Origin: a virus
DNA length: 64,000 bases
Virus record (IMG/VR): IMGVR_UViG_3300042888_001055
Strand: one strand, 5' to 3'
Shown here in pieces: positions 21,122 through 48,266 of the stretch. The notes under the pieces are model-generated. The model made no database searches. It was not told the origin of the DNA and worked only from the letters and a program-made list of their open reading frames with translations. Positions within the stretch are counted from its first letter, which is position 1; the number at the start of each line of letters is the position of its first letter. A program made the position numbers and the translations under genes.

Positions 21122-21209
21122 TTTAGCCTCAGGGTAGTGTTATTCGTATTTAGCATAAATTTAAAATATGCTATTATTTAGCGACTTTTTTTATCCACTA
21201 AATATTGTC

Positions 21210-22689: not shown

Positions 22690-22711
22690 TTATAAAAGAA
22701 TAAATACATAT

Positions 22712-24851: not shown

Positions 24852-24880
24852 AAAAAAATAGACCCCGAAGGGTCTATTTT
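24852..24880. terminator. Bidirectional terminator with UUCG loop
   Basis: AAAATAGACCC-CGAA-GGGTCTATTTT. Confidence 0.9.
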
Positions 24881-26892: not shown

Positions 26893-26952
26893 ATTTATTT
26901 CAATACTGATTGTAACAGAAAACTATTTATCTGTCTACTACTTTGGATAACT

Positions 26953-27026
26953 TGGAGCGGGGTAACAGAATCGAACTGTCAGCATTAGCTTGGAAGGCTA
27001 AGGTATTACCACTATACGAACCCCGC
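26953..27026 (-). tRNA. tRNA-Gly(TCC)
   Basis: Cloverleaf, U73. Confidence 0.92.
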
Positions 27027-27041
27027 ATAAATACTATTTAT

Positions 27042-27587
27042 ATGACAAACTGCTTTGATATAAACTTATCTCTAAATCCTCTTAAAGAAGATATAGATAT
27101 AAAATCATACGGACCTGATCGTCATACACGAATTCCAATATCAGATATTAATCCTAATTTAATATCATTAATAGATAGATTAGATTTAAAAGTTATATTG
27201 GCTGAACTATTCTACACTAAACCCCATACAATAACCGGGATACACATTGATGTAGTAGGGGGTGATTATACCAAACTAAACTATATATTCGATGGCAAAG
27301 ATAGTTTAATGATGTGGTATAAACCAAAAGACAACATTGTAAAATCTATTAGCAAAACACCTATTAATACTAGGTACATCAGTTATGCTTTACATGAAGT
27401 TGAAATTACTGATAAACAATCAGTTAAGTTTCCTAGCATTATACAAGCTGGTATACCGCATAATGTTATTAACTATTCAGAACCTAGATGGTGTCTTAGT
27501 ATAGTGTTAGTTAAACAAAATGGTGAACGACTTACAATGAAAGAATCAATCTGCATATTCAATAAATATGTAGAAGTTTCATTATGA
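27042..27587 (+). CDS. Cupin / Fe(II)-2OG oxygenase-like protein
   Basis: IHID...PHNVIN..RW; start reassigned to MTNCFD (track start lies inside tRNA-Gly). Confidence 0.65.
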   Translation: MTNCFDINLSLNPLKEDIDIKSYGPDRHTRIPISDINPNLISLIDRLDLKVILAELFYTKPHTITGIHIDVVGGDYTKLNYIFDGKDSLMMWYKPKDNIVKSISKTPINTRYISYALHEVEITDKQSVKFPSIIQAGIPHNVINYSEPRWCLSIVLVKQNGERLTMKESICIFNKYVEVSL

Positions 27588-28129
27588 AGTATTATGTTTC
27601 TGTACCTATAGAAAACTTAAAAACTATACAAGAAAAAGTATTTGAGCTTTTTCCTAAAAGAGAACTTTTTAAAAAAGAATCATTGTTTTATATACCTGAT
27701 AATCTAAATCTTTTCTTAAATATACCTGAGTTAAAAGCAGAGTTAGATAAACTCAACTGGACACCCTATGTCTTTAGTATAGGATTTTATATCATTGGTA
27801 CTACTAATGGAACACATATACATTTAGATAGTAATACATTTACTCATAGTTTTAATATACCAATACTAAACTGTGAAAATACTTTTGTTAATTTTTATAA
27901 GACTGATAAAGAGCCTAAAAAAGAAGTATACAAGTTATATGATACTCTTATAAACTATTACAGGTTTGATCCTGCAGACTGTGTAGTTGTTGACCAACTT
28001 GAAATGTTAACACCGAATGTTATTAACGTACAAGAACCACATAATGTGGTAAATAAGAATACAAAACCACGTATTACATTACTAATACGTTTACGAAATG
28101 ACCTTGATTTATCACACTTATTCCAATGA
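27584..28129 (+). CDS. Cupin / Fe(II)-2OG oxygenase-like protein
   Basis: IHLD...FNIP...PHNVVN...RI. Confidence 0.65.
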   Translation: MKYYVSVPIENLKTIQEKVFELFPKRELFKKESLFYIPDNLNLFLNIPELKAELDKLNWTPYVFSIGFYIIGTTNGTHIHLDSNTFTHSFNIPILNCENTFVNFYKTDKEPKKEVYKLYDTLINYYRFDPADCVVVDQLEMLTPNVINVQEPHNVVNKNTKPRITLLIRLRNDLDLSHLFQ

Positions 28130-28563
28130 ACTATATAGAATATATAAACTTTCCTAGTATACCCAATGAGTTACTAGATCCAATTGAAAATATTATTAAT
28201 AGCACACGAATAAATAGTATTGTTAAGCAAGATTTTTTTCAAGGAAGACCTGTTAGTAACCAATTACAAGACTGGCTTGAAAAGAACCTTTCATTTAACT
28301 TTGTTGCACAATATCAAATAATCTATTCAGGTATACCTATACATAAAGATATGGGTAATAGGAAATTAGCATATAACTATTTACTGGTATTAGGCGGTAG
28401 TAATGTTAAGACCGTAATATTTGACGACAGTAAAAAGATATTACAATCAGAAATATTACCATTACGTACATGGCACAGTATTAAAACTGACATGTTTCAC
28501 GGTGTATTTGGATTACAAAAAGATAATCCTAGGGTATCACTAAGTGTGACACCTAAACAATAA
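28126..28563 (+). CDS. Cupin / Fe(II)-2OG oxygenase-like protein
   Basis: IHKD...FHGV...RV. Confidence 0.6.
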   Translation: MNYIEYINFPSIPNELLDPIENIINSTRINSIVKQDFFQGRPVSNQLQDWLEKNLSFNFVAQYQIIYSGIPIHKDMGNRKLAYNYLLVLGGSNVKTVIFDDSKKILQSEILPLRTWHSIKTDMFHGVFGLQKDNPRVSLSVTPKQ

Positions 28564-30874: not shown

Positions 30875-30929
30875 ATTTTATCATTTTAGTACTTTATACT
30901 ACATAAAATACTTGATGATAAATATTGTT

Positions 30930-32353: not shown

Positions 32354-32400
32354 AGTGTACTCCTTTTCTGTTATTATCACTATATGTATTTAATGCCTAA

Positions 32401-33133: not shown

Positions 33134-33679
33134 TTAATTTGTTAAATAACAGTTGAATAATTGCAATGCAGTATTCCAATCTACCCATTCATTATTAATT
33201 GTCTTTAATTTTAAATTAACACACCATCTTTCATTTATTTGATTAGTGACATTGTGTGGCACAGCACCTTGAAATAAACAGGTGCCATTAATATTTCTAG
33301 ATTCTATGATTCTTAATTTAGTATTGTTGTATTTTCTTATAGTTGTAAACGGTGTTTTTATTACCTCGCCATTATATCCATCAACAGGTTTATACCAAAA
33401 TACTTTACTATTTGTACCACCAATAACCAAATTCAAATTAGTTTGATCGTACACATCATCGTCATCAATATGTATACGTGAAGGTTCATACGTTGCGGCG
33501 TAATACAGTACAATACAATTAACTATTTTAATTTTTCCCGATGATTCAACTAAGTTGAATAATTCAGGATTTAAAATAATATGTGGATTAATTTTAATTA
33601 TCTGTTTAACACTTGTTAAATCAAATTCCGTGTTAAGAAATGGAATCGGTAAATTTAATTTTTGAAAATTTCTAGACAT
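33134..33679 (-). CDS. Cupin / Fe(II)-2OG oxygenase-like protein
   Basis: IHID...PHNVTN...RW; start MSRNF 4 nt after TATAAATA. Confidence 0.65.
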   Translation of the reverse strand: MSRNFQKLNLPIPFLNTEFDLTSVKQIIKINPHIILNPELFNLVESSGKIKIVNCIVLYYAATYEPSRIHIDDDDVYDQTNLNLVIGGTNSKVFWYKPVDGYNGEVIKTPFTTIRKYNNTKLRIIESRNINGTCLFQGAVPHNVTNQINERWCVNLKLKTINNEWVDWNTALQLFNCYLTN

Positions 33680-33736
33680 TTTGTATTTATATACAATTGT
33701 GTTCTGTGGGCAGAACTGATAGTCTATACTATAAAC

Positions 33737-33814
33737 TGGCACCCCCTCAAGGATTTGAACCTCGGAGTGTCGGAATCAAAATCCGATGCCTTAGACCAAC
33801 TTGGCGAAGGGGGT
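33737..33814 (-). tRNA. tRNA-Gln(TTG)
   Basis: Cloverleaf. Confidence 0.9.
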
Positions 33815-35044: not shown

Positions 35045-35632
35045 TTAGTCAAACTTGTTGGTGTCAATATCTACTATAATATGAATGCGATCATCATTGC
35101 TGTTATTTTCTACTCCGTGCAGTTGTCTATTCATTAATTGGCATAGGATTCCTTTCGGCATATGTATCGGCTTATTATCAGCCGGACCTATAAACAATAC
35201 CTGACTATTAGTTGTTATCGGTACATGAAATCTGTGATATCTTTGAAAGTACAATCCAGTGTCTATATGTGGTATAACTCTACCACCCGGTAATAATTTA
35301 ACTACCATAATGCGTCCCAACTCTTTTCCATTAACTACAGAATAGCACCATTCAATCATGCTATTTATTTGAGGGTACATATATCTTACACTACTATCCT
35401 TACATTCAATAATGTCTGATACAGCTTCACGTGTTCTTGGTGTATTTTGTTCTAATTTGTGTGTCCGAAGATGTGTTGTAATAGATGTTGCAAATACCGG
35501 ATCACGTTTTCTAAAATCCGAGATTACAGTGGTAGAATCCCAATTAATATTGTCAATTTCATTTTTAGTAGAATTGAATAATTCTGTTGGCACTGATTCT
35601 ATTAAACGAACATGATTTTCTTTTATAAACAT
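35045..35632 (-). CDS. Aspartyl/asparaginyl beta-hydroxylase-like Fe(II)/2OG oxygenase
   Basis: LLPGGRVIPHID...RFHVPI...HGVEN...RIHIIVD. Confidence 0.8.
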   Translation of the reverse strand: MFIKENHVRLIESVPTELFNSTKNEIDNINWDSTTVISDFRKRDPVFATSITTHLRTHKLEQNTPRTREAVSDIIECKDSSVRYMYPQINSMIEWCYSVVNGKELGRIMVVKLLPGGRVIPHIDTGLYFQRYHRFHVPITTNSQVLFIGPADNKPIHMPKGILCQLMNRQLHGVENNSNDDRIHIIVDIDTNKFD

Positions 35633-35691
35633 TGAGAACTATTTATATTAATATAAATACTATATATATTTGTGTACAAAGGAGTTACAAA

Positions 35692-36231
35692 ATGAGCGTA
35701 ATTACATTTTTTGCGGCCGCACCAGAATCTACCGTAAGTCAATCAGTTACTGAGGTTAATTCTATAGATTGGGATGGATCACCCATCGATGGTATTGAAA
35801 TTGATAGTAATGATAACATCAAGGTTATGATGTTGTCACAACTGAACGATCTAGGTGATACTGTTGAAGAAATAAATAATACTGTAATATTTAATCAACT
35901 TACCCCTTTACTTTATCCAGGAATTTATTCTTTAATAGATTGGCTAAAGAGTACAGTCGGAGCATCCTACATTGGAAAAACAAGAATTGTGGCATTATTA
36001 CCGGGAAAAGGTATACCGGATCACATTAATAATAGTTCATATTACTCTAAGTATACCCGATATCATATTCCTCTAGTAACTCATTCTGATGTTAAAATTA
36101 TAGAAACACTCACATCTACAGAAGAAAACATGTTAGTTGGTAACGTTTATACGTTATCTAATACAATAAGCCACAGTTTTAAAAATAATTCTAATATTAC
36201 TAGGATACATCTTATAGTAGATTTGGCATGA
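35692..36231 (+). CDS. AspH-like oxygenase
   Basis: LLPGKGIPDHIN...RYHIPL...HSFKN...RIHLIVD; start MSVITF with SD AAGGAG. Confidence 0.75.
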   Translation: MSVITFFAAAPESTVSQSVTEVNSIDWDGSPIDGIEIDSNDNIKVMMLSQLNDLGDTVEEINNTVIFNQLTPLLYPGIYSLIDWLKSTVGASYIGKTRIVALLPGKGIPDHINNSSYYSKYTRYHIPLVTHSDVKIIETLTSTEENMLVGNVYTLSNTISHSFKNNSNITRIHLIVDLA

Positions 36232-36755
36232 AATACAATTTTCTTTTTAAAAAAATACTAGATGTAGATGATAGTGTTTTAGATGTATTAGAGGATTATG
36301 CAATGTCAGTTGAGTATGGGGATAATCTTGGTTTTTATAAGGGTAAAGGAATCAGAACACACATGATAGAAAACGTGTTAAACGTTCAACCGGCAATAGA
36401 AGCACTTTCAAATATTGTTAACCCTAACGGTTATTTAAATTCTTATATTAATATATTGCCAGCAAATCATTATATTTTTGAACATAGTGACGTGGGTGAG
36501 GGAAAATTCTTCAGTGATAATTTAACTATACACAAAATACATATTCCATTAATAACCAATCAATCATCTGGTCATATGTGGAAATGTTTTTATGAAGAAA
36601 ATAAACAGGTTGCCGTTAATTTTGAACGCGGTGCATCATATTTATTCAACAATATTGACATACATTCAGCCGTAAATTTTTCTTCTAGTGAAGATCGATA
36701 TCATTTAATTCTGAGATATCGACAGGATTCTATTGCAGAATCTTTTTACAGTTAA
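36228..36755 (+). CDS. AspH-like oxygenase
   Basis: EHSD...KIHIPL...HSAVN...RYHLI. Confidence 0.75.
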   Translation: MKYNFLFKKILDVDDSVLDVLEDYAMSVEYGDNLGFYKGKGIRTHMIENVLNVQPAIEALSNIVNPNGYLNSYINILPANHYIFEHSDVGEGKFFSDNLTIHKIHIPLITNQSSGHMWKCFYEENKQVAVNFERGASYLFNNIDIHSAVNFSSSEDRYHLILRYRQDSIAESFYS

Positions 36756-37891
36756 TCTATCAAATTTCCCATATAATAATAACTAGAATCAATAGACGGA
36801 AATTGTCCGTTTTTCATTACTACATTTGTAGTATCTAGTTTATTTAAATAAGAACTCCAATGATATCTCCATCCCTTTTTTATTTTCATAATTTCAGGAT
36901 GTGTTTCTACTATAATATCAAATTGGCTCATATCATCTATTTCTCCTACAATAGGTTTTCTAACTTGAAATTTAGATATATCCCAGTCCGGGTATATTAT
37001 GGGTTTTATTAATTCACTATACTTATCCCATCGTTCTGTATGTCGACCAATCCATTTTGGTTTATATAATAAGTCTTGATATTGCGGATTTCTTTTAAAC
37101 CATAAAAATACTTGATATGCTCTTTCTAATGCAAGTTCAGGAAAGTCAGGAGTCCAGAAAAAATATTCAGTACCATATGGATTAGTTACAGTTGGTGGGA
37201 TAAGTACCATTGGTTTGTCAGGAAAAGTAGTGTATGCCTTATTGTCCTTAGCTAAGAGTACGGGCTTTTCTACTCCATTGATAACTCCGACCTTTTTCCC
37301 ACGTTCTATTAATTTTATTTCTATATCATTATTACTATGTTCCGGATGCTTTAGAATATATGACATAAAATACAATCCTCTATGTGATTGAAATTTGTCA
37401 TCACCGAAACTATTTGCTGTTATGCCATCAAGCCAATCGATTAATTTGATTTCTATTTCCGGATGGTATGTTGATATGTACTCAAGATCAGGTTTAATAA
37501 TATAATCCCATTCTGACAATTGATTTTTAGCTGATGTATCTATTAAATTTGGGTTATGTATTTTTTGATTAATCAAATTAAACGGTTGTTTAACCATTAT
37601 CTGATCAAGTTTGATATTATTTTGTAGAAACGCCTGTAAAATACAATGACTATCACTACCACCGCTATATTGTAAAATTAGATAATCATATGAATCTCGT
37701 AGCATCTGGGCACGTTGTTTATATAATTCTTTAAGAGCCGTTCTACCTAATAGAGATTTATCAAAGTTTCTCCAAATATTATCATAGTAATGCCATTTAA
37801 TGGGTAAACCTGTTTTAGATTTTTCTAAAAAGGCAAGCATTGAATTAGTAATTATTTTATCACCGACAGTATAATGTCCATACTTACTCAC
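36752..37891 (-). CDS. PP-loop (asparagine-synthetase-like) protein
   Basis: LQYSGGSDS; GVEKP; EYFFWTPD. Confidence 0.7.
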   Translation of the reverse strand: MSKYGHYTVGDKIITNSMLAFLEKSKTGLPIKWHYYDNIWRNFDKSLLGRTALKELYKQRAQMLRDSYDYLILQYSGGSDSHCILQAFLQNNIKLDQIMVKQPFNLINQKIHNPNLIDTSAKNQLSEWDYIIKPDLEYISTYHPEIEIKLIDWLDGITANSFGDDKFQSHRGLYFMSYILKHPEHSNNDIEIKLIERGKKVGVINGVEKPVLLAKDNKAYTTFPDKPMVLIPPTVTNPYGTEYFFWTPDFPELALERAYQVFLWFKRNPQYQDLLYKPKWIGRHTERWDKYSELIKPIIYPDWDISKFQVRKPIVGEIDDMSQFDIIVETHPEIMKIKKGWRYHWSSYLNKLDTTNVVMKNGQFPSIDSSYYYMGNLID

Positions 37892-38820
37892 TTAAAAATC
37901 CCTTCAAGCCTTTCTTTATTTGCCATCATATTATCAAGTCTTTTATTAATTGCCGGGATAGATAAATCAGAATTATTAAAATATATCTGATTCTGTGTCC
38001 ATATTTCTTTCGCTTCGGGTGTTGACATAATTGTACTTAATTGCAAATTATATTGTGCAATTACTGATTTTGGTGTGCCTGCAGGAACCATTAATGCAAT
38101 TGTACTATCAATAAATGATCCAAATCCTTTAAAGGTTTCTGCCACCGTAGGGATATCCGGTAACTCGTTAAGTCGGTTGTTATTAACTACTGCAATGATT
38201 TTTATACGATCATTCTTATGCAACATTCTAGCTGTACTTCCATTTAATATAGCAAATTCAACGTGTCCACCTGCTATATCAGTGCCCAACTGACCGGCCG
38301 ATTTATAAGGAACTACCGTAACTTGTTTGCTTCCCAAGTTTTCTGCTAGCTCGGTAGTCCAAGCTTTTACAATACCCGACATACTACCCAACGAAATGTT
38401 TTCTCCTGCATCAATTCTTTTTTGGATATCAGAAATAGTAGACGATTTGCTATTTGGAGCCGCTACTACCATAGATACTGCACGGCCAAGACTTATTACC
38501 ATTTCGAAATCCTGTCTTGTGTATGTCTTGTTTGATTTATACAATACATCTGATAGTACAAATGTGCTAGCAAGACCGCATAACATGAATGTGTTATTTT
38601 CACCATGTTGTTTATAATAGTTTGCCGCAATTACTCCGTCAGCGCCAGGTTTACGGTTGAAAATTAAAGTAGTGTCTGGCATTTTCGAAAATAGGTATCG
38701 CATTATATTAGTAGAAGAACCTCCCTCTCCTATAGCTGTAGTTACTGTAATTACTTCAGCCTGTGCTATACCTATTAAGGATAGTAGTATAATAGTAAAT
38801 ATTTTTTTCATGTAAATCAT
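37888..38820 (-). CDS. Bug/TctC-family periplasmic solute-binding protein
   Basis: Signal peptide; NRKPGADG.IA, VPYKS, LPDIPTVAE, PAGTP. Confidence 0.85.
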   Translation of the reverse strand: MIYMKKIFTIILLSLIGIAQAEVITVTTAIGEGGSSTNIMRYLFSKMPDTTLIFNRKPGADGVIAANYYKQHGENNTFMLCGLASTFVLSDVLYKSNKTYTRQDFEMVISLGRAVSMVVAAPNSKSSTISDIQKRIDAGENISLGSMSGIVKAWTTELAENLGSKQVTVVPYKSAGQLGTDIAGGHVEFAILNGSTARMLHKNDRIKIIAVVNNNRLNELPDIPTVAETFKGFGSFIDSTIALMVPAGTPKSVIAQYNLQLSTIMSTPEAKEIWTQNQIYFNNSDLSIPAINKRLDNMMANKERLEGIFK

Positions 38821-38880
38821 CCATCTATTTATTAAAGGATTTTGTCTACTATAAATATATGTAACATTGAAGTGAGAAAT

Positions 38881-40191
38881 ATGTTTTGTAAAACTATCTG
38901 GAATGGGATTTATATTTTACCGTACGGTGATATTCGGCTGTGTTCTATTGGAAACAATTCCGATGCATCATTAGATATGAATACTGCTAGGGATGAGAAC
39001 GGTGTTGCTATGAATATTCTTACTCATAGCATCAAGGAAATTGTTAATTCTAAAAAACATCTTGAGGTAAGAAAACTAAACATAGATGATCCAACGGCGT
39101 GGAGCCAGCATTGTTCTTGCTGTGAGAATAGGGAAATGGTTACTAAAAATAATGTATTACACCCTAATTCAAGTAGAAGGTTATATTTAAAACAGGTTAT
39201 AAAATCAAACGACATAGTTACTGAATCAAACTGTACAGAAAAAGCCAGCGCAGATGGTAATATCGACTGGTATCCGAGTAGTTTAGATATACGATTTGGA
39301 AATCTATGCAATCAAAAATGCGTAATGTGCAGTCCTATATATAGTAAACTATGGTATGATGAATATACTGAATACTATAAAACCAATCTATTTGGTAGCG
39401 GTACAAATAATAAGAAAATTTCTTTAGTTAAAAATAACAACGGTCAATGGCAACAACCCAAAGAAATGGAATGGTACGAAGATCCAAGGTGGTGGCCAAA
39501 GTTTAAAGAAATGATGCCATATCTACGACACATTTATGTGACCGGGGGTGAGCCAATGATTGTACCATCGCACGATACAATGTTAGATATACTAATAGAG
39601 AATGATTTAGCAAAGAACATAGTACTTGAGTATGATACAAATCTAACTGTCATTAATACAAAATTATTCCATCGTTGGAAACATTTTAATAAGGTGTTGA
39701 TTCGTGTTAGTATGGATGCTATTAAAGAAAAATATAATTTAATTAGGTTTGGAGGTAACTGGGAAAAGTTTGTTGATAATATTGAAAAACTAAAAACATA
39801 TGAAGAAGAATCCGAAGGACGAATTAAGATACAAGCAATCACCTCTTGTTTTCAAATCAGTACAGCATTGAATATTGTAGAATCAGAAGAATGGTGTAAT
39901 ACTATGAAGTTGCCATTTCATATTAGGTTTTTAGATGGCCCTGACAAACATGCTACTATGTCACTACCCATTTCTGCAAAAGAAGAATTAATAGATTTTT
40001 ATTCAAATCATAATACAGAAAAATCAAAACTAATAGTAAATTATCTATCGGAGCACTTATATTCGACACGAGGATCAGTGGACGAGATACATTCATTTAT
40101 TAATTTCATGGATTTCCTTGACAATAGCAGATCAACTAACTGGAGAGAGACTCTTTCGGATATCCACACTTTCCTTGAAAGGCATAAATGA
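38881..40191 (+). CDS. Radical SAM protein with N-terminal twitch/SPASM-like Cys domain
   Basis: CNQKCVMC, TGGEP, YDTN; N-terminal FC..W...C...CSCC. Confidence 0.9.
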   Translation: MFCKTIWNGIYILPYGDIRLCSIGNNSDASLDMNTARDENGVAMNILTHSIKEIVNSKKHLEVRKLNIDDPTAWSQHCSCCENREMVTKNNVLHPNSSRRLYLKQVIKSNDIVTESNCTEKASADGNIDWYPSSLDIRFGNLCNQKCVMCSPIYSKLWYDEYTEYYKTNLFGSGTNNKKISLVKNNNGQWQQPKEMEWYEDPRWWPKFKEMMPYLRHIYVTGGEPMIVPSHDTMLDILIENDLAKNIVLEYDTNLTVINTKLFHRWKHFNKVLIRVSMDAIKEKYNLIRFGGNWEKFVDNIEKLKTYEEESEGRIKIQAITSCFQISTALNIVESEEWCNTMKLPFHIRFLDGPDKHATMSLPISAKEELIDFYSNHNTEKSKLIVNYLSEHLYSTRGSVDEIHSFINFMDFLDNSRSTNWRETLSDIHTFLERHK

Positions 40192-40775
40192 ATTATATAC
40201 ATTTAGGTAAGGCCCCGCAATCATTTATTGAAAAAATACAAAAATTAATTGAATTAAAGCACGATACCAATGCCACATATGAATGGATAATGTTTGATTA
40301 CGGCATGCAAGAAATATTTAATTCTGTGTTTCCTATCCCTGAACTAAAAATACAATATTTACCTAATAATGTAATAAATCAAAAAGCGTTTTTTTCTAGC
40401 CCATTTAATGGTTTTAGACCACATAAAGATGGTATTGATTGTCAATGCGCTCTTAATATTGCCGTCTCATGTAATAAAGAAGATTGGGTAAGATGGTATG
40501 ATGAAGATTATATTAATAATATTTCAAGCACACATAGAAACAATACAACAGAATCTCATAGACATAGTAGAAACACAGACCTGCATGAATATGAGGATAT
40601 CCCATTTATTGACGAAATGAGACAAAATATAGGTGATGTTTATTTAGTTAATACTAATGTTTATCATAGTTTCAAATGCTATGGACCACTTAATCGTATA
40701 ATTATACAGACTAAGCTTGAAGATAATCCTAATATTGTAGAAGTTTATGAAAATTTAAAATATTATTTTAAATAA
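40188..40775 (+). CDS. Cupin / Fe(II)-2OG oxygenase-like protein
   Basis: PHKDG...ALNI...YHSF...RI. Confidence 0.65.
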   Translation: MNYIHLGKAPQSFIEKIQKLIELKHDTNATYEWIMFDYGMQEIFNSVFPIPELKIQYLPNNVINQKAFFSSPFNGFRPHKDGIDCQCALNIAVSCNKEDWVRWYDEDYINNISSTHRNNTTESHRHSRNTDLHEYEDIPFIDEMRQNIGDVYLVNTNVYHSFKCYGPLNRIIIQTKLEDNPNIVEVYENLKYYFK

Positions 40776-41631
40776 CTAAATCAATATTTGCCCTATAGAA
40801 ATTGCGAATTTCGCCGGAATTCAGAATAAGTTTACTTCTATTATGAACAAAAGACCAATTATCATAAATTGCTATATCAAACGTGTCCCAAGTGTGATAG
40901 TAGGTACGATTTGGTATTTTTAATAATTCTTTAATATACGTTCCTATTAGAGAACAATCTGGTTGAAGTATATCATCAATTTTTACATTGCATATCCAAG
41001 CATCCTTACATACTCCGGGTATATTATAGAAATTCAATCTTAATGATTTTTCTTTAGTGACAGGATGTTCTTTTATGAAATCAAATTCTTGCAAATCTTG
41101 TAGTGGTTTATGCTCAGGCCCAGATACTTTATACCAACTCTGTTGAATAATTTTAACTCTTGGGATTAGTTTTAAGAGTTCTTCATTCATATCTGTTAAC
41201 GGAAGATTTATATTTAAAAACCCAGTTATACCTGAAATTTCAGGATTTGGATTTTGTGTAATCCAAAGACTACGAAACGGAAACGGGTTCTCTCTCTTAT
41301 TAGGAATATCAGCATGCCATGGCATTGGTTGAACATTAAGTCTAGGAGCATTTATATTATTGAACGGGCTTAATACATAGTCACCCATAGGTGTAGTTAT
41401 TGTTTCAGTTTTTTCTTGACTATATGAATAATCAGTTTTATTCCACATATTACCAAACTGTGAGCAGAACAAGGCATAATCTTCAACTGAAAAATTCATT
41501 TTTTTGAACACAAGTAATTTTCTAGCATATATCAATGATCTCCAAAAAGAAAAATCTTTGTTAAAAAAGTCTTTTGGATTTTCAAATTCTATTGTTGAAC
41601 CCCAAGATTCATGTATGTTCTTTATTTTCAT
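40768..41631 (-). CDS. TauD/TfdA-family dioxygenase
   Basis: WHAD...HPVT...DIAIYDNW..VHNR. Confidence 0.85.
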   Translation of the reverse strand: MKIKNIHESWGSTIEFENPKDFFNKDFSFWRSLIYARKLLVFKKMNFSVEDYALFCSQFGNMWNKTDYSYSQEKTETITTPMGDYVLSPFNNINAPRLNVQPMPWHADIPNKRENPFPFRSLWITQNPNPEISGITGFLNINLPLTDMNEELLKLIPRVKIIQQSWYKVSGPEHKPLQDLQEFDFIKEHPVTKEKSLRLNFYNIPGVCKDAWICNVKIDDILQPDCSLIGTYIKELLKIPNRTYYHTWDTFDIAIYDNWSFVHNRSKLILNSGEIRNFYRANIDLVI

Positions 41632-41661
41632 ATTGGTTATTTTATATAGATAAATATCCAT

Positions 41662-42282
41662 ATGCATATATTAAATTCGCACAGTGACATATGTTATCCT
41701 ATTACACTGACTACAAACCTTAATAATTTAAATGAGTCAATATCAACACTATTTATTAGATTGGGTATTAGCAAAGAATTATTCTTTAAAGATTTAGAGA
41801 AAGCTTTGATAATTACACTAAATCTGTCTCATTTACCAACTTTGCAAGGAGCTGATAGGTGGAAAAAACATGCAGGAAATCACCCATCGGTTAAAGCTGA
41901 ATCAGTTTCTGAGATTGATTTTACACAGTTTCTTACTGAGATGGATGATCTTTATATTAAAAAAGTAATAGATGATATATTCACATACCATGAACTTAAA
42001 TTTGGAAAGAAATTTCAAGGTAGGTGTCAATTGATTGCTAGTCGAGCACCTCAATGTTATAAAATACATAGAGATTTACATACTACCCATAGATATCATA
42101 TACCGTTAGAAACTGATGAAAGATTTTTATGGTTATTTGAAGATGATAATAAGGATATTACATTACTTCATATGCCAGCTGACGGTAGAATATGGTATCT
42201 AAATCCAGTAACTGCTAAACATACAGTGATTCACGTAGGCTCATCAATTCGTTTTCATATTCTATTAACTAGCAGTGTTTAG
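41662..42282 (+). CDS. AspH-like oxygenase
   Basis: IHRD...RYHIPL...HTVIH...RFHIL. Confidence 0.7.
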   Translation: MHILNSHSDICYPITLTTNLNNLNESISTLFIRLGISKELFFKDLEKALIITLNLSHLPTLQGADRWKKHAGNHPSVKAESVSEIDFTQFLTEMDDLYIKKVIDDIFTYHELKFGKKFQGRCQLIASRAPQCYKIHRDLHTTHRYHIPLETDERFLWLFEDDNKDITLLHMPADGRIWYLNPVTAKHTVIHVGSSIRFHILLTSSV

Positions 42283-42293
42283 TAGCAACTAAG

Positions 42294-43085
42294 TTATTTT
42301 AAGAAAGGTAGAAAAATTCTGCAAGGATCAAATTCCCACCATTTGCCACTAATATTAGTTCCGAAGTCATATGACTTAGGGTCATGATGATGATTATTAT
42401 GCCAACCTTGTCCCCATCCTAAATAGCCTAAAACAAAATTATTCTGACTCATATCGGTGGTGTCAAAATTTCGATATCCAATTATAGATTTCCAATGTCC
42501 AAACAAATTAGTAAGATTGTCTTGAACCAGTGTAATTGCAATGGGTAGACATAATAATGACAAACTCAATTTCCAATTGATCAATGCAACCAATATTGGT
42601 ATTCCCCATAATATTTTAAATTGATTATTATGAAACCAAATGTGATTCTCTTTACGTAACAGATTGGCTGCATATCGCATGTTTATAGGATTAGCTTCAG
42701 TAATCTTAGTTGTCCACGTGAATACTGAATGAATTTTGCCGTGTATTGGACTATGCAAATCTTTAGGAGTGTCACTGTATCTATGATGATACCCTCTATG
42801 AATTGCTACCCAAGAAATACTTGATCCTTCACCACTAAGTATTCCAAAAAACAATATAAGATTTTCTTTCCATTTTGGAAGATTTGGATGAGTGTTGTGT
42901 GAAAAAATTCTATGGAATCCTACTGCTACTCCTAGACCGGCAATACATACCCAGCCCAAGAATGTAAACCAAAGATACCATAATGGTATAGCACTATTAA
43001 TAAACAATATAATAGTAAATATACCTAATGTTATAAATGGTATAAAGCTGAACCAGGAATATCTAGAAATATTTTTGAACATCAT
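42294..43085 (-). CDS. Membrane fatty-acid (delta-9-type) desaturase
   Basis: His boxes HRIFSH, HRGYHH, HNNHH; WWEFDP. Confidence 0.92.
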   Translation of the reverse strand: MMFKNISRYSWFSFIPFITLGIFTIILFINSAIPLWYLWFTFLGWVCIAGLGVAVGFHRIFSHNTHPNLPKWKENLILFFGILSGEGSSISWVAIHRGYHHRYSDTPKDLHSPIHGKIHSVFTWTTKITEANPINMRYAANLLRKENHIWFHNNQFKILWGIPILVALINWKLSLSLLCLPIAITLVQDNLTNLFGHWKSIIGYRNFDTTDMSQNNFVLGYLGWGQGWHNNHHHDPKSYDFGTNISGKWWEFDPCRIFLPFLK

Positions 43086-43089
43086 GTAT

Positions 43090-43686
43090 TTATAATCTTC
43101 CTGCGTTTGACCAATTAGTGCGATATGCGTTTTTTAAAAATGTGCAACGAACTACAGTATCAATTGGTATCAAAGTACGATTATATAATATTTGCCAATG
43201 TAAATTATACTTGCATTGATGTTTTAAAGGTATCATATACTCATCGAAATAATCATATCTTTCATTAGCCCATTCACTGAAGGTAAATCTTCTTAATAAC
43301 TTTGCATGTTTAGCAGACCATAATGTATAAAACTTTAATCTACCTCGTTCTTCATTGTGCTTGATTGCAGTATCTAGTAATAATTGTGCTACTTTTTTAT
43401 CCCCTGAGTTTTTTATGTGTGTTCCGTACCAACTAGCATCATCTGTTGATTCATAGAATCCTATCAAACCCTGAACTATACCTCCGTCATCTATAGCACC
43501 ATAGGCATGATAATTATTCAAATCTGACAAATATGTGTCGCTGAATGCAGTATGATAATATTCTACATAGTCTTGGTCAGTAGCAACAAAATAATTACTG
43601 TGAACCATGGAGCCCATATATTTTTTCTTTTCAAAAAGTCTACGTACACCTAATATATTAGATGAATCTAATTTAACAATTTTCAT
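43090..43686 (-). CDS. Hypothetical protein, GNAT-like
   Basis: AYGAIDDG..QGLIGF..., VAQLLLD.AI pattern. Confidence 0.5.
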   Translation of the reverse strand: MKIVKLDSSNILGVRRLFEKKKYMGSMVHSNYFVATDQDYVEYYHTAFSDTYLSDLNNYHAYGAIDDGGIVQGLIGFYESTDDASWYGTHIKNSGDKKVAQLLLDTAIKHNEERGRLKFYTLWSAKHAKLLRRFTFSEWANERYDYFDEYMIPLKHQCKYNLHWQILYNRTLIPIDTVVRCTFLKNAYRTNWSNAGRL

Positions 43687-44600
43687 TCATTACCTTTTAA
43701 CATATTAATAACTTTATTAAATTCTATTCCATCAACATTTGATTCTAATCTCATTATTTGTTCATATGTTAGCTGTCTATACGCTTCAAAATTAAAACCC
43801 AATAATTTTTCAAATCCATGTGTCTTTTTACGAACTCTAATTTCAGGTACTAGCTTTTTTAATATAGTATTTTTGCTACTTACTGATGATAGTTTATAAT
43901 TATATTTGGTAGATACTAAATTAACAATATCAGGATCTTCTAAATAATAGAGTAACAATTCAGGAGTATAACTAAAATATTCATTAACCAATGGTATACC
44001 AAATTTTAAACTAAAACGCATTGCACTAGCATCTTCATTCTCACGTATACAGTAAAACCAAGTACTTGGATCAGTATTGATATTTCTTTTTAAAAATACT
44101 TCCCCACCCATTACTGCCGGCATTCCTATTTTTTTAATAGAATGATATACCATTAAATATGTAATCTGTGTACATTGCAATTCTCTACCAAACTCACTAG
44201 CCTCACCGCTGTATAGAAAATCTTTTACATCAAAATCTATGATGTTCAACTCTAAATCTAATTCTGTAGCTAAATCAATTGCTTCATTCACATCAAAAAT
44301 ATTATAGTCATCTTTAAATTTAATGACAAAACATTTGGGTTTTATACCAATATCTACAAAGTTTCTAGCAACAATTTCGCTATCTGTTCCGCCACTGAGA
44401 AACAATGCAATATCCGATTTGTAGTCTTGGTAAATCAAATCAGCCGTTCTATGTAATTCTTGCTTATAATTACTTTTTTTATAATGATCCTTATCAATTG
44501 ATCCCAAAAAAATCTTGTAACGCTGTATTGGTGAGGTTCTGTATCCAAACTCTACCCCATCAATTGAATATTTTAAATGATTTTGATGAGTAAAATACAT
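43683..44600 (-). CDS. PP-loop (asparagine-synthetase-like) protein
   Basis: LFLSGGTDSE; R.KTHGFE; paralog of 21210. Confidence 0.72.
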   Translation of the reverse strand: MYFTHQNHLKYSIDGVEFGYRTSPIQRYKIFLGSIDKDHYKKSNYKQELHRTADLIYQDYKSDIALFLSGGTDSEIVARNFVDIGIKPKCFVIKFKDDYNIFDVNEAIDLATELDLELNIIDFDVKDFLYSGEASEFGRELQCTQITYLMVYHSIKKIGMPAVMGGEVFLKRNINTDPSTWFYCIRENEDASAMRFSLKFGIPLVNEYFSYTPELLLYYLEDPDIVNLVSTKYNYKLSSVSSKNTILKKLVPEIRVRKKTHGFEKLLGFNFEAYRQLTYEQIMRLESNVDGIEFNKVINMLKGNE

Positions 44601-44621
44601 AGTATGTTATTTAGCAGTGAA

Positions 44622-45212
44622 TTAGTCTGAGTATATTTTAACAACATCTTCAAAGTTTGGATTACCTGCAAATCTAATACTCATTAAGTATCTATAGTTT
44701 TTGTTTAACTTATTATCTATTCTATGCCAAACATCTGTATTAACTATAGATGGTGTTTCAATCAAACATCGGTGTGCCGGTGTGTACACACCGGCTGGTG
44801 TGTCTTCTATTCTATATGATGAATGATTTTTTTCAATTGTTGTTAATCTTACATTAGTGTATCCGGAAACAACTTTAAATTCATCAAATATATTTTCAAA
44901 CCAATCCATAAATCCCTCATCACAATTAAGTAATGGTATATTTAATGCAGCTTTTCTATCAATGCCATCACGATGAACCATGCCGGTTGATTCCGGGGTA
45001 ATAGCAAATATTTGAAATACTACCGGTTTTATTTTTAAACCAGCAAGCATCCAATCGGGAAAGTTATTTAGTTGTCTGTATATGATAGTATGACCGTCGC
45101 CGGTTTTTTCAGATAATATTTTTGCCCGATCATTATTAATAAATTGATTACCATATTCTTTTAATCTAAGAAAAAAGTCATTCCATTCTAAATGTGTTAC
45201 TACATTATTCAT
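44622..45212 (-). CDS. Cupin / Fe(II)-2OG oxygenase-like protein
   Basis: VHRDG..AALNIP...WHRIDN...R. Confidence 0.65.
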   Translation of the reverse strand: MNNVVTHLEWNDFFLRLKEYGNQFINNDRAKILSEKTGDGHTIIYRQLNNFPDWMLAGLKIKPVVFQIFAITPESTGMVHRDGIDRKAALNIPLLNCDEGFMDWFENIFDEFKVVSGYTNVRLTTIEKNHSSYRIEDTPAGVYTPAHRCLIETPSIVNTDVWHRIDNKLNKNYRYLMSIRFAGNPNFEDVVKIYSD

Positions 45213-45808
45213 TTTTTAATATCCAATATAGAAACTATACGAGGTTGTTCTACATTCATTTCTTCATAATCAACCCCGTGACTTAAATTACCATCATCAA
45301 ACATAAAAGAATTATCCATTCCTTCTTCCCATTTCTTTTTATCTCCCTCAATGTTAAATGTAAATCCGGGATTTGTTTGAAAACATATATGGGCTCGCCA
45401 AGCATGATTACTAACTCCATAATGATATGATAAGTTTGCTTTGGGATATGCAATATTAAAGAAACATTGTTCCAGTGTGTCATCAAACGTGTTTATAAAA
45501 TCCTGCCATCTTATCAATTTGTTATACACTTCAGGATATCTATTTTTAAATGGGTATCTATATAAACCATGTGTATCTGTCCATCTTGTTAATCTTAATT
45601 CATTTACATCTAATAAAGTTTTAGTAAGCTTAAATGCAACAACATCAATTCTACCATCATATAATAATTCTCCGGTGTTTCGTATGTATTTAGGTTTATC
45701 TGCCTTATTCATAGGCATCACGTGTTCAATAAATTCTGATTTTAACTCATCGTAATGAGTTGTATAATAATCAGCTATTTTTCCAATAAAAGGTAAAAAA
45801 TGTGTCAT
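45209..45808 (-). CDS. AspH-like oxygenase
   Basis: YHYG...RAHIC...W.EG...FDD...HGV...RIV..LDI. Confidence 0.75.
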   Translation of the reverse strand: MTHFLPFIGKIADYYTTHYDELKSEFIEHVMPMNKADKPKYIRNTGELLYDGRIDVVAFKLTKTLLDVNELRLTRWTDTHGLYRYPFKNRYPEVYNKLIRWQDFINTFDDTLEQCFFNIAYPKANLSYHYGVSNHAWRAHICFQTNPGFTFNIEGDKKKWEEGMDNSFMFDDGNLSHGVDYEEMNVEQPRIVSILDIKK

Positions 45809-45840
45809 TATTATTTCAATAAAAATTAATCTCTAGGGTG

Positions 45841-46434
45841 CTATATCTCATCTTTATACCTGATCATCTTATTTAATATATCAAACTTAGTACCAAATCC
45901 ATATGTAATAAGATATCTAGGTATATCTAGTTTACCCTCGACTGCATGAATTTGATTAGTATTTAATAAGTACCCAAACCCTTCTTCAACTATATAGGAA
46001 CTATGATTATTTTCAAAGTTTTCATAAACACCGTCATTACTTATTTTAGTGATTGCTGTAGAACTATTTTTAATCCCTATATTAATACATGAGTATCTCC
46101 CGGCTTCATCTCTATGAGGTATAATATTACCTAAGGTACGTATTAAATGAACTCTTTCTATAGTAGGTGGAGAATTATTTGGGAGAACAGTGGTCAATAC
46201 TTCTATCACTTTGTTAACCATTTGAGATAATATCGGGTGCTTAAATGTATGCCGAGTAAATGCAATTGATCCTATTATAGATCCTTCATTTCTATATTCC
46301 ATCCAGCACGGGTAGTCGGGTATTACAAAATCTCCACCATATTTATGAATAACAGTTTCTAGTTTTTCTGCTTCATCAACATATATTTGAAAATCGTTTG
46401 GATTAATTAATTTACCTAGAGGTATAATGTTCAT
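45841..46434 (-). CDS. Cupin / Fe(II)-2OG oxygenase-like protein
   Basis: PHRDE...INI...IHAVEG...RY. Confidence 0.65.
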   Translation of the reverse strand: MNIIPLGKLINPNDFQIYVDEAEKLETVIHKYGGDFVIPDYPCWMEYRNEGSIIGSIAFTRHTFKHPILSQMVNKVIEVLTTVLPNNSPPTIERVHLIRTLGNIIPHRDEAGRYSCINIGIKNSSTAITKISNDGVYENFENNHSSYIVEEGFGYLLNTNQIHAVEGKLDIPRYLITYGFGTKFDILNKMIRYKDEI

Positions 46435-46970
46435 TTTTGATACTCTGCCACGTATTGTTCTGTATAGTAGATTGTTTTCTTTCCAATTGGTTTAAAATTT
46501 CGATATATGTCAGGCCAATCATTAAATAATCCACCTGCTTTACCTTGTTCCACTCTAACAAACCATTCGTAAATCTTTTTATTGTATTCATTACATGTAA
46601 ACCATATATGTTTGTAATCTTTTACTTCTGCTAAGGCTAATGGTAGAATATTATTAGCTATATGATAGTTCATTCTAAACTTGGGTATAGTATACATACG
46701 TGTTAACATTAATGCAATATTATTGTCTAAATCATATTCATTCCATCCTGCACTAGCAATATAATTACCATCTTCCTCTATAATATAGTATTTACCCTGC
46801 CCTAATTTATATCTTCCGGACTTTAATGTATTAAACAAATTACCCGGAGTACTTTCATAATCCGGGTGATAGTTAGTAACATAACTTTCTTTATCAATGT
46901 GTGATAAACCTTGTTTTAATAAAGTTATTACACGTTGATTATTTAGGCCATGTATTTCATGCACGATCAT
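46431..46970 (-). CDS. GNAT-like acetyltransferase
   Basis: YIASAGW...LTRMYTIPKFR. Confidence 0.6.
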   Translation of the reverse strand: MIVHEIHGLNNQRVITLLKQGLSHIDKESYVTNYHPDYESTPGNLFNTLKSGRYKLGQGKYYIIEEDGNYIASAGWNEYDLDNNIALMLTRMYTIPKFRMNYHIANNILPLALAEVKDYKHIWFTCNEYNKKIYEWFVRVEQGKAGGLFNDWPDIYRNFKPIGKKTIYYTEQYVAEYQK

Positions 46971-47099
46971 TTATAATGTTTCGTAGTCTACTTTAAAACC
47001 ACCGCACTCTGGACAAGGAAAATCTTCTGGTAGATCATCCCATTTACCTTCTGTTTCTTCATCGTGAACATGTCCACAAATTACACATACATGATCCAT
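46971..47099 (-). CDS. Rubredoxin (42 aa)
   Basis: MDHVCVICGH...WDDLPEDFPCPECG; not in ORF track; TAATG-coupled to rubrerythrin. Confidence 0.9.
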   Translation of the reverse strand: MDHVCVICGHVHDEETEGKWDDLPEDFPCPECGGFKVDYETL

Positions 47100-47563
47100 T
47101 ATTCTGCTCCCTTTGTTAATTCATCTAATTTAGCTTGATATGCTTCAGCATGGCGCTTCTCTACTTTAGCAAGAGCCGCAAAACGTTTTTCAGCTTTCTT
47201 TAGTATTTCTTGGAACTCACTAGCATGACGCTGTGATTCTTCAATCTGATGTTGTGCTTCTTTGGCTGCACCTAGATTACCTTCAAATTCAGCAATCTCA
47301 CGGAACTCTGGGTACATAATCTGATACTCATAAGTCTCACCCTCAATAGCCATCTCTAAACATTGTTTAGTATCTGGTTTCTTAATAAGTAATTCTAAAT
47401 GACCCCATGCATGTAATAATTCTTGGTCTGCTGTATGCTCAAAATGTTTTGCAATATCTTCATGCCCCTCAGCACGTGCAATTTTTGCAAAATATTTATA
47501 TTTTACATGTGCCTGGCTTTCACCGGCTAGTGCCCCTTGTAGGCTAGTTATAGTTTCTGACAT
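47099..47563 (-). CDS. Rubrerythrin (short, ferritin-like)
   Basis: AGESQA..KY..FA..A..EG...E..HA...GETYE...MYP...E..HA. Confidence 0.9.
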   Translation of the reverse strand: MSETITSLQGALAGESQAHVKYKYFAKIARAEGHEDIAKHFEHTADQELLHAWGHLELLIKKPDTKQCLEMAIEGETYEYQIMYPEFREIAEFEGNLGAAKEAQHQIEESQRHASEFQEILKKAEKRFAALAKVEKRHAEAYQAKLDELTKGAE

Positions 47564-47584
47564 AGTTTCTCCTTTGTGTGTATA

Positions 47585-47887
47585 TCATTCATCAGATGGT
47601 ATTAAACCATTACTGTGTTTATCTGTTGTTTTTTCAACATCCTGAAACAAACGTTTCTCTTGTGCTGTTAATGTATCTTTATGTGATCTGCGTGGGTTAC
47701 CGCATAAGGGACATTGTGGGTTACCACAATCCATAACATGATGTTTAGCTAACCGATGTGGTTCTTTTATTACTTTATCTTTGTTAGATAATCCGTGTGC
47801 TTTTGCTATCTTAACTTGTTTCTTAACTGCTAGTTCGTCACGATGACGGCGTTGTGAGTTTAAAAATTTTGCTAATTCATTGGCCAT
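47585..47887 (-). CDS. Hypothetical protein with CxxxxCxxC motif
   Basis: CGNPQCPLCGNPRR. Confidence 0.7.
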   Translation of the reverse strand: MANELAKFLNSQRRHRDELAVKKQVKIAKAHGLSNKDKVIKEPHRLAKHHVMDCGNPQCPLCGNPRRSHKDTLTAQEKRLFQDVEKTTDKHSNGLIPSDE

Positions 47888-48266
47888 TATATCTCTTTCT
47901 ATAATCTTCTACTGCGGCTTTGATGGCGTCTTCGGCGAGGATACTGCAGTGGATTTTGACTGGGGGGAGGCTGAGTTCGTCGGCAATATGGGAGTTTTTA
48001 ATGGATGTTGCTTCATCCAATGTTTTACCCTTGACCCAGTCTGTGACAAGACTTGAAGAAGCAATTGCCGACCCACACCCATATGTTTTAAATTTGGCAT
48101 CTGTTATAATTCCTGTTTCTTTATTTACTTTAATTTGTAATTTCATTACATCACCGCATGCAGGTGCGCCAACCATACCAGTACCAATACCAGTATCACT
48201 CTTATCAAAAGATCCGACATTCCTGGGATTTTCATAGTGGTCAATAACTTGTGCGCTATAAGCCAT
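47877..48266 (-). CDS. iscU: Fe-S scaffold IscU
   Basis: YENPRNVGS, GAPACGDVM, KTYGCGSAIAS, LPPVKIHCS. Confidence 0.97.
   Translation of the reverse strand: MAYSAQVIDHYENPRNVGSFDKSDTGIGTGMVGAPACGDVMKLQIKVNKETGIITDAKFKTYGCGSAIASSSLVTDWVKGKTLDEATSIKNSHIADELSLPPVKIHCSILAEDAIKAAVEDYRKRYNGQ

Follow-up and report, generated by a model that had tools for sequence, protein, structure and literature searches.

A conserved PP-loop, GNAT and desaturase cassette in an uncultured T4-type lake phage suggests an acyl-amide pathway

The 64,000-nucleotide stretch of DNA analysed here (IMG/VR record IMGVR_UViG_3300042888_001055, called the window below) comes from an uncultured T4-type lake phage encoding 27 tRNAs, ribonucleotide reductase (RNR), PAAR and fibre genes. 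We analysed the island of enzyme genes at 35045-46970 and propose, with a probability of roughly one half, that it is a phage pathway active in the infected cell, which makes or edits an aminolipid-like fatty-acyl compound that is amide-linked, unsaturated and hydroxylated; both the product and its use are inferred. At its core stand a PP-loop ATP pyrophosphatase (PPB), a GNAT-fold acyltransferase (Y) and a membrane desaturase (FAD). This trio, together with the acyl carrier protein (ACP) that is frequent in relatives, a fusion of the probable second GNAT (X) to an ACP, and the ketosynthase, FA_hydroxylase and desaturases of related loci, points to acyl-chain chemistry ending in one or more amide bonds. 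Four targets had been put forward in the original prediction, which was made from the sequence of the window: virion fibres, tRNA, lipid A or membrane lipids, and an acyl-amide metabolite. The acyl-amide or lipid option fits best in view of the SCD1-like desaturase, the ACP and the lipid genes of relatives, and tRNA and fibres lack specific support.

The island holds 16 intact open reading frames (ORFs), which run consecutively and in alternating orientation over 35045-46970, just as had been read from the letters. They form seven units, encode 175-449 aa each and are never more than 60 nt apart; the overlapping convergent stops are likewise present, at 36752-36755 (AspH3/PPA) and at 40768-40775 (cupB1/TauD). 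Its G+C content is about 0.30 compared to 0.35-0.40 on both flanks. At least 19 contigs carry an island of identical sequence with all genes intact, and the four places listed for it belong to four different samples. From gene callers and these identical contigs the starts of AspH2 (35692), rSAM (38881), TctC (38811) and TauD (41661 or 41631) were corrected. All family assignments made earlier were checked, and those of the cupins, TauD, the radical SAM enzyme (rSAM), the desaturase, the PP-loop enzymes, TctC and Y stand, while X can be called a GNAT only weakly. The core genes and X are:

43683..44600 (-): PPB, core PP-loop ATP pyrophosphatase, 305 aa, SGGTDS; assigned from this motif and weak profile matches
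43090..43686 (-): Y, core GNAT-fold acyltransferase, 198 aa; assigned from an AlphaFold2 (AF2) model; start overlaps the PPB stop by 4 nt
42294..43085 (-): FAD, core membrane desaturase of predicted delta-9 (stearoyl-CoA desaturase) type, 263 aa; PF00487, 1e-9
46431..46970 (-): X, probable second GNAT, 179 aa; weak sequence matches

The comparison of this region with its relatives covers 56 IMG/VR loci collected with a Y profile and 11 distinct loci found by exact-protein look-up (numbered with an L below). In all 54 loci with room for it PPB immediately precedes Y on the same strand, and a desaturase is adjacent in 47 of 51 loci, directly downstream of Y in 34 and directly upstream of PPB in 13. 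X is located upstream of PPB in 30 of 50. The order of the core being fixed in 54/54 and 47/51 loci, the earlier idea of a coherent modification or biosynthetic system is upheld. Genes scattered independently in relatives, or catalytically dead, had been named as the observations that would speak against it; with a fixed core order and conserved catalytic residues the genes are neither scattered nor, as far as these residues tell, dead. Against L071, whose Y is 89% identical (dS about 0.7), the ratio of nonsynonymous to synonymous substitution rates (dN/dS) is 0.13 for PPB, 0.07 for Y and 0.11 for FAD, and by this measure the core genes are under purifying selection. The same calculation against the identical-population contigs L067-L070 was uninformative with zero differences.

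For PPB a weak match to TIGR01536 below its cutoff was obtained, and among 30 orthologues weak matches to QueC (25/30), Asn_synthase (17/30) and NAD_synthase (14/30), as well as to tRNA_Me_trans, were detected. The QueC, Asn_synthase and NAD_synthase families adenylate a carboxylate and then amidate it. The neighbours of PPB in the ESM-Atlas are viral 'Asn synthase domain' clusters, and its homology to PPA, the second PP-loop enzyme of the island, reaches 96% in hhalign. Thus PPB is probably a member of the carboxylate-adenylating, amide-forming enzyme class.

By the fold of its AF2 model (predicted local distance difference test, pLDDT, 82) Y is a canonical GNAT: Foldseek returned 415 PDB matches at E<=1e-3 (SpeG 1e-7), and the VIA alignment gave Z 14.5 over 149 residues with a root-mean-square deviation of 2.8. 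Y of the window has no Pfam match. Its conservation is high, with identities of at least 50% over more than 100 clusters, and using the Y profile against 1.84 billion representative proteins we found that the whole superfamily comprises 168 representatives. The distant Y matches among these 168 belong to no Pfam family, and two long ones are spurious GAF-repeat proteins; no fusion of Y was seen among the longer proteins examined, which is weak evidence. Y was not found in two metagenome-assembled genomes (MAGs) holding PPA-like genes.

FAD shows the histidine boxes HRIFSH, HRGYHH and HNNHH and three hydrophobic segments, and its sole solved relatives are SCD1 4ymk (E 3e-10, residues 9-240) and 4zyo. 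With these family hallmarks in its sequence FAD is an SCD1-like membrane desaturase, for which delta-9 regiospecificity is predicted.

Among 27 orthologues of X a weak match to Acetyltransf_7 occurs in eight and to Acetyltransf_1 in five, and an ESM-Atlas lead points the same way; hhalign revealed no relationship of X to Y or to the MCD-like GNAT described below. In relatives a carrier protein of 72-78 aa (PF00550) lies between X and PPB in 21 of 50 loci, that of L001 scoring above the PF00550 cutoff. L055 carries an X-ACP fusion (L055:8309-9076, +) with an LGLDSLD motif, whose X part is 50% identical to X of the window over 179 aa; it is known from this single contig and may be an assembly artefact.

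Around this core the accessory genes change. Downstream of FAD, L071 carries a class-III aminotransferase with PhyH (L071:11626-13624), and in addition another PPA-TctC pair and two radical SAM enzymes unlike rSAM. L072 (80%) has a FabF-like ketosynthase (L072:8807-10015) and three more desaturases, L073 (74%) a B12-radical SAM enzyme with an ATP-grasp protein (L073:12959-16653), three AspH genes and a remote carrier protein, and L003 an FA_hydroxylase and two desaturases. The hydroxylase and radical SAM shell thus differs completely even between close relatives. In 33 loci with at least 9 kb on both sides we counted cupins in 28, PPA in 19, TauD in 13, rSAM in 12 and TctC in two. Cupins number 0-7 per locus in this set, and the phage studied here, with eight in the island and four in its tRNA array, stands at the top; it is also among few relatives carrying a TctC-PPA pair.

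Taken together, the proposed pathway could run as follows. An acyl carrier protein, primed or loaded by X, would hold the acyl chain in thioester linkage; as the 64-kb window holds no carrier, this phage would have to rely on the AcpP of its host or on a carrier gene in another part of its genome. The desaturase would put a double bond into the chain, Y would move the acyl group to an amine to give an N-acyl amide, and PPB might adenylate a carboxylate of the intermediate and couple ammonia or another amine to it. The eight AspH/LpxO/OlsC-type cupins and TauD would hydroxylate the chain or the head group, and rSAM might add a further modification. A periplasmic TctC could capture a carboxylate precursor, which would enter via the host TctAB and be activated by PPA. 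The upstream NifU, rubrerythrin and rubredoxin may supply and protect Fe-S clusters, and T4-type late promoters would transcribe the pathway, whose product could stay in the membrane as a lipid, modify the envelope or be released.

Besides X, 12 genes surround the core in the island. Four of them are accessory enzymes:

36752..37891 (-): PPA, accessory PP-loop enzyme, 379 aa, SGGSDS; predicted AsnB-like synthetase domain
37888..38811 (-): TctC/Bug-family solute-binding protein; PF03401, 2e-21; stop overlaps the PPA start by 4 nt
38881..40191 (+): rSAM, radical SAM enzyme with N-terminal twitch (auxiliary Fe-S) domain; NF033640, 3e-73
40768..41661 (-): TauD-family iron- and 2-oxoglutarate-dependent (Fe/2OG) oxygenase; PF02668, 4e-11; H118-x-D motif

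The SGGSDS motif of PPA is invariant. In an AF2 model of pLDDT 91 the VIA alignment to E. coli AsnB (1ct9) gave Z 10.8 over 285 residues and covers AsnB 137-516, followed by human ASNS (10.1), the hydroxyamidotransferase TsnB9 (8.9), beta-lactam synthetase (8.3) and carbapenam synthetase. Foldseek on the same model returned the generic PP-loop core only, at E >= 1e-3, and the AsnB-type match emerged by VIA-align. By this predicted fold PPA is a stand-alone asparagine-synthetase-like synthetase domain that lacks the N-terminal Ntn glutaminase domain, and it is not AsnB. By sequence it could be matched to nothing in Pfam, NCBIfam or the PDB, even with a 32-sequence profile, and both PPA and PPB stay below the Pfam and TIGR01536 cutoffs. 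In metagenomes 308 homologues of PPA were found, all of them hypothetical, whereas 185,579 species genomes yielded four matches, each on a MAG contig; single-protein scans of IMG/VR detected no close relatives of PPA or rSAM. Searching the PDB with the PPA sequence and with the profiles of PPA, Y and X gave no useful match, nor did a PHROGs search with ten island proteins. In L005 (L005:11198-11521) and L006 (L006:11184-11510) a conserved ORF of 107-108 aa without Pfam match follows PPA, and the window has none at this place.

TctC and all of its phage homologues seen carry a Sec-type signal peptide, and a TctC lies beside a PPA-type gene also in L001, L003, L038, L042 and L071. No multi-span membrane protein that might be TctA or TctB was detected besides FAD among the island and flanking proteins scanned. 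As only TctC of the tripartite tricarboxylate transporter is present, the TctAB of the host would be needed, and the exported TctC adjoining the cytoplasmic PPA suggests that a carboxylate may be taken up and then activated. rSAM scores 247 bits against NF033640 (N_Twi_rSAM; cutoff 170), shows CNQKCVMC (CxxxCxxC) at residue 156 and also matches PF04055 and SPASM. The nearest solved relative of TauD is 5j92, a putative alpha-ketoglutarate-dependent 2,4-D dioxygenase (E 0.004). We considered TauD as a ScoE-like isonitrile enzyme and rejected this, the match covering the N-terminal 97 residues only with 21.7 bits against a cutoff of 400.

The remaining eight genes of the island encode cupin oxygenases, to which four more inside the tRNA array have to be added:

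35045..35632 (-): AspH1, cupin oxygenase, 195 aa; PF05118, 1e-6
35692-36231 (+): AspH2, with H-x-N instead of H-x-D; PF05118, 3e-8
36228-36755 (+): AspH3; PF05118, 1e-5
40188..40775 (+): cupB1, cupin of a second subgroup, 195 aa, H79-x-D81...H160...R170; no Pfam match, assigned by hhalign
41662..42282 (+): AspH4, AspH-like cupin, 206 aa; iterated hidden Markov model (HMM); H136, D138 and H187 conserved
44622-45212 (-): cupB2, 195 aa; hhalign
45209-45808 (-): AspH5, with H-x-G; PF05118, 1e-9
45841-46434 (-): AspH6; iterated HMM; 96% to cupB2 in hhalign
26943..28563 (+): cupT1, cupT2 and cupT3, inside the tRNA array; hhalign
33134-33742 (-): cupT4, fourth cupin of the tRNA array; hhalign

Four of the eight island cupins exceed the gathering cutoff of PF05118 (26-38.6 bits against 22.6); two of the others were added by an iterated HMM and two by profile-profile comparison at 96-99%. 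The twelve diverged cupin-type genes counted earlier, including the four in the tRNA array, indeed form one network in hhalign (cupB1~cupB2 98.9%, AspH4~AspH1 98.4%, cupT1~cupT2 99.5%, cupT1~cupB2 97%, cupT2~cupB2 99.2%, cupT2~AspH1 89%, cupT1~cupT4 99.8%), to which cupT3 is tied weakly (cupT3~cupB1 85%). In orthologue alignments H-x-D...H and an arginine about ten residues past the distal histidine are 88-100% conserved in 11 of the 12 cupin lineages; the alignment of cupT4, consisting of two sequences, gave no conserved columns. H122, D124 and H172 of AspH1 are invariant in 30 orthologues and the ligands of cupB1 in 12. Natural ligand variants occur as H-x-N in AspH2 and as H-x-G in AspH5, the latter like human AspH. 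With metal ligands and arginine conserved, the cupins look catalytically active. The nearest solved relative of AspH1 is Cpz10 (7v4f, E 7e-5).

AspH2 and AspH3 are 47% and 63% identical to their L001 orthologues. Of the 12 cupins, 11 resemble a counterpart from another phage (27-66% identity) more closely than they do any paralog of this phage (at most 37%). This argues that the set is an assembly of old lineages and not a recent expansion. By these sequence comparisons the cupins are old, separate lineages shuffled between phages, whose diversity comes from gene-content turnover. The suggestion that a paralog expansion reflects diversifying selection is therefore not supported; dN/dS of the core is 0.07-0.13.

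TAAATA starts had been remarked on before, and T4-type late-promoter motifs do head most units. The T4 late promoter is TATAAATA, which is present in exact form at most 40 nt upstream of four of the 16 genes (AspH1, AspH2, rSAM and FAD), and copies with one mismatch precede TctC, AspH4 and Y. Among random 40-mers an exact TATAAATA occurs in 0.3% and a copy with at most one mismatch in 5.3%; the window as a whole shows no enrichment, with 11 copies found where 15 are expected. The exact copies are:

35640..35659: back-to-back TATAAATA motifs for AspH1 (-) and AspH2 (+)
38850-38857 (+): further exact copy, for rSAM
43087-43094 (-): further exact copy, for FAD

From the end of the motif to the ATG there are 7 nt for AspH1, 9 nt for AspH4 and 1 nt for FAD (stretches 35633-35691, 41632-41665 and 43086-43094), a distance so short that leaderless or nearly leaderless late mRNAs would be implied. 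Judged by these motifs, T4-type late promoters may drive most units of the island. TauD and AspH4 may start back to back, with CATATG at 41659-41664.

Directly upstream of X, and co-oriented with the core, follow helper genes:

46971..48266 (-): helper genes as a whole: rubredoxin, rubrerythrin, 100-aa unknown and NifU/IscU scaffold
46971-47099 (-): rubredoxin, 42 aa, too short for the ORF list; PF00301, E 1e-6
47099-47563 (-): rubrerythrin; PF02915, 2e-17
47585-47887 (-): 100-aa unknown
47877-48266 (-): NifU/IscU scaffold; PF01592, 5e-54

The rubredoxin links rubrerythrin to X: it begins with an ATG that overlaps the stop codon of rubrerythrin (TAATG), and its own TAA is followed immediately by the ATG of X. 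In many relatives the upstream order is Hyd2 (cell-wall hydrolase)-DUF2452-h186-NifU-h100(-Rbr), and the rubrerythrin-rubredoxin pair is present also in L047, L048 and L067-L071. We did not adopt rubredoxin as the electron donor of the desaturase, since it accompanies rubrerythrin (L047, L048, L071) and not FAD. A second Fe-S gene besides NifU/IscU is found at 5555-5884 (+), an IscA/ErpA-type carrier (PF01521, 1e-19); carrier and scaffold together fit the load of radical SAM and iron enzymes of this phage.

On the other side of the tRNA array a second cluster of low G+C content was found at 20621-24846, which begins with the following genes and ends with unknowns of 301 aa and 409 aa, the latter with a P/Q-rich tail:

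20621-21121 (-): MCD_C-like (malonyl-CoA-decarboxylase-like) GNAT, 166 aa; PF05292, 1.8e-8
21168-22115 (+): PPB paralog, 315 aa, SGGLDS; tblastn matches of PPB orthologues
22093-22689 (+): methyltransferase-like protein, 198 aa

In L038, L040 and L056 the direct upstream neighbour of X is such a methyltransferase-like gene. With satellite genes related to the core and such a methyltransferase adjoining X in relatives, the system is probably split across the tRNA array, the genes at 20621-22689 probably being a satellite of the island. The edge of the array holds a metallophosphoesterase (24880-25464, -), and inside it are a DnaJ-domain protein (30912-31526, +) and an HNH endonuclease (31793-32380, -). 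On related contigs we came across a tRNA with a CUA anticodon (L059:16651-16726), called tRNA-Pyl by ARAGORN and a possible amber suppressor, and across phage-encoded tmRNAs (L059:13994-14450, L052:7616-8025).

Other explanations of the island were weighed against an acyl-amide pathway. A ribosomal product, be it a fibre tip, a phage or host protein or a peptide encoded elsewhere that resembles a ribosomally synthesised and post-translationally modified peptide (RiPP), could be hydroxylated, acylated by GNAT lipidation and amidated or cyclised. Protein and peptidyl hydroxylases do occur in the AspH and TauD families, twitch/SPASM radical SAM enzymes often serve as RiPP maturases, AsnB-like enzymes include lasso cyclases and beta-lactam synthetase, and the window also contains fibre genes, from 57836 on. 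However, these are more than 10 kb away with RNR and baseplate genes in between, the invariant partner is a membrane desaturase of the SCD1 type, and relatives carry a ketosynthase, an FA_hydroxylase and ACPs. Nor does the island contain a precursor ORF or room for one: as the original prediction had stated, no obvious precursor peptide is present, the gaps of at most 60 nt leave no free small ORF, and the arrangement of a RiPP cluster, a precursor adjoining its maturases, is not seen in the island. We therefore regard protein or peptide modification as unlikely. Somewhat more doubtful still is a direct remodelling of host envelope lipids (phospholipid chains, lipid A or ornithine lipid) that needs no new scaffold, in which the desaturase and LpxO/OlsC-like hydroxylases would alter the fluidity of the membrane or the chemistry of the surface and might for example block superinfection. 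Desaturases are known auxiliary genes of cyanophages (PMC5776448), LpxO, OlsC and OlsD are lipid hydroxylases of the PF05118 family (PMC12971839), and the signal peptide of TctC points to an activity directed at the envelope, but such remodelling leaves the invariant PPB-Y-desaturase coupling, the dedicated ACP and the X-ACP fusion unexplained. The cupins of this phage also have no membrane segments, in contrast to LpxO, an inner-membrane enzyme by the title of Gibbons 2008, which PMC12971839 cites.

The neighbourhood of the tRNA array could suggest that the 27 tRNAs or another nucleic acid are being decorated, as PP-loop enzymes (TilS, QueC, MnmA), GNATs (TmcA, Elp3), radical SAM enzymes and cupins (TYW5, AlkB) all occur in such reactions. 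The island abuts the array with four cupins lying within it, about 21 of 44 related loci have tRNAs no more than 10 kb from the core, and PPB orthologues show the weak QueC and tRNA_Me_trans matches. Yet about half of these 44 loci have no tRNA nearby, a membrane desaturase, an ACP and a ketosynthase have no role in RNA modification, and the full-length fold match of PPA is to AsnB-type enzymes and not to TilS or MnmA, which makes this reading very improbable. We give least credence of all to the idea that unrelated auxiliary genes without a joint function have piled up in a hyperplastic T4-type region. The accessory shell does turn over fast and pelagimyophage and cyanomyophage genomes have such plastic regions (PMC7029224), but the fixed order and the overlapping stop and start codons of PPB-Y-FAD (54/54, 47/51) as well as the X-ACP fusion would be unexpected for unrelated genes.

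Several points weigh against the acyl-amide pathway itself. No carrier protein was found in the 64-kb window: an HMM of 19 phage ACPs scores E 1.5 at best there, yet detects the remote ACP of L073 at 1e-7; three cupins (cupB2, AspH5 and AspH6) occupy the usual site of the carrier between X and PPB. An O-acyltransferase, a thioesterase or an ANL ligase was not seen, and Pfam revealed no AMP-binding domain protein in the island. The class of PPB was assigned from its motif and weak profile matches, X is a GNAT only weakly by sequence, and there are few precedents for an AsnB-like enzyme in a thiotemplated lipid pathway. Modification of peptides and proteins, too, is a typical role of the AspH, TauD and SPASM/twitch radical SAM families, and the island adjoins a tRNA array with four cupins inside.

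Going further, large freshwater T4-type phages could possess a true small biosynthetic cluster, in which a core of carrier protein, PP-loop enzyme and GNAT builds an amino-lipid-type scaffold, each lineage decorates it with hydroxylases, radical SAM enzymes, desaturases and amide ligases of its own, and PPA and PPB form an ATP-dependent class of enzymes amidating lipid head groups, as needed for the taurine transfer to ornithine lipid. This version we put forward tentatively, as a possibility at odds of well below one half; if true, the scaffold might be phosphorus-free, or a signalling or toxic lipid.

In the literature no report was found of the PPB-Y-desaturase cassette, its carrier protein or its PP-loop partners; what is described are individual auxiliary genes for lipids, in cyanophages and pelagimyophages, and, in Flavobacterium jumbophages, an 'ACP module'. 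Among deposited phages megablast of the island and tblastn of PPA, Y and PPB gave no match, and tblastn of rSAM gave one, Ralstonia phage RsoM2USA with 21% identity. Phage auxiliary lipid genes have so far been described singly, compared to a multi-enzyme cassette that appears here under purifying selection. The PPA, PPB and Y families have no Pfam model, and PPA is almost absent from cellular genomes. This, together with the missing matches of PPB and Y in deposited phages, points to a chemistry of lipids or acyl amides that is specific to phages, here to abundant ones of lakes. A core that stays fixed while its tailoring enzymes are rapidly exchanged recalls the diversification of natural product clusters and suggests a molecule under ecological pressure, which might act in host envelope change, superinfection exclusion or phosphorus sparing. 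The core, of four or five small genes, could also give a function to stand-alone asparagine-synthetase-like PP-loop enzymes. New here are the AsnB-type fold predicted for PPA, the X-ACP fusion, the turnover of the shell with dN/dS values, the ancient cupin set and an ACP-less, cupin-rich layout bearing TctC.

Among known systems, modular polyketide synthases of the CurA type use GNAT-ACP loading didomains. The order of GNAT and then ACP, the X-ACP fusion of L055, the methyltransferase-like gene upstream of X in three relatives and the MCD-like GNAT at 20621-21121 are reminiscent of them, but the island has no polyketide synthase modules and X is weakly assignable to the GNATs. Ornithine lipids are tailored by the LpxO-type Fe/2OG hydroxylases OlsC and OlsD, the di-iron enzyme OlsE and N-methylation (PMC12971839), and in cerilipin the head-group carboxylate of an ornithine lipid is amidated with taurine in an ATP-dependent manner by the product of a still unknown gene (PMC12971839). 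From this parts list an acyltransferase-fold enzyme, several PF05118 hydroxylases, a methyltransferase-like gene and ATP-dependent amide-forming enzymes are matched, as is the FA_hydroxylase in L003. In contrast, the island has no O-acyltransferase of the OlsA/PlsC type, its cupins are soluble with about 195 aa, and the desaturase of its invariant core is not an Ols feature. The N-acyltransferase OlsB takes acyl-ACP as donor, and no member of the X, Y or distant-Y alignments matches its type, PF13444, though a remote kinship is conceivable. As the gene for the taurine transfer is unknown, an AsnB-like PP-loop enzyme would be a plausible type for such a step.

The JamABC cassette consists of the acyl-ACP ligase JamA, the membrane desaturase/acetylenase JamB and the ACP JamC (bioRxiv 10.1101/291195; PMC8341276). 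Here, too, a carboxylate-activating enzyme, a small dedicated carrier (in relatives) and a membrane His-box desaturase stand side by side, but the activator is PP-loop/AsnB-like and not an ANL ligase, two GNATs are additional and the carrier is missing from the window. The island thus belongs to neither the ornithine-lipid nor the JamABC systems. A small enzyme of the AspH family tailoring a small molecule is known in Cpz10 (PMC9814697). Cyanophages and pelagimyophages, finally, carry DesC-type desaturases, fabF and a stearoyl-CoA desaturase, with AspH as a core gene (PMC5776448, PMC7029224). They share with the phage studied here the T4-type aquatic background and delta-9-type desaturases and AspH-family genes in plastic regions, but theirs are reported as single auxiliary genes.

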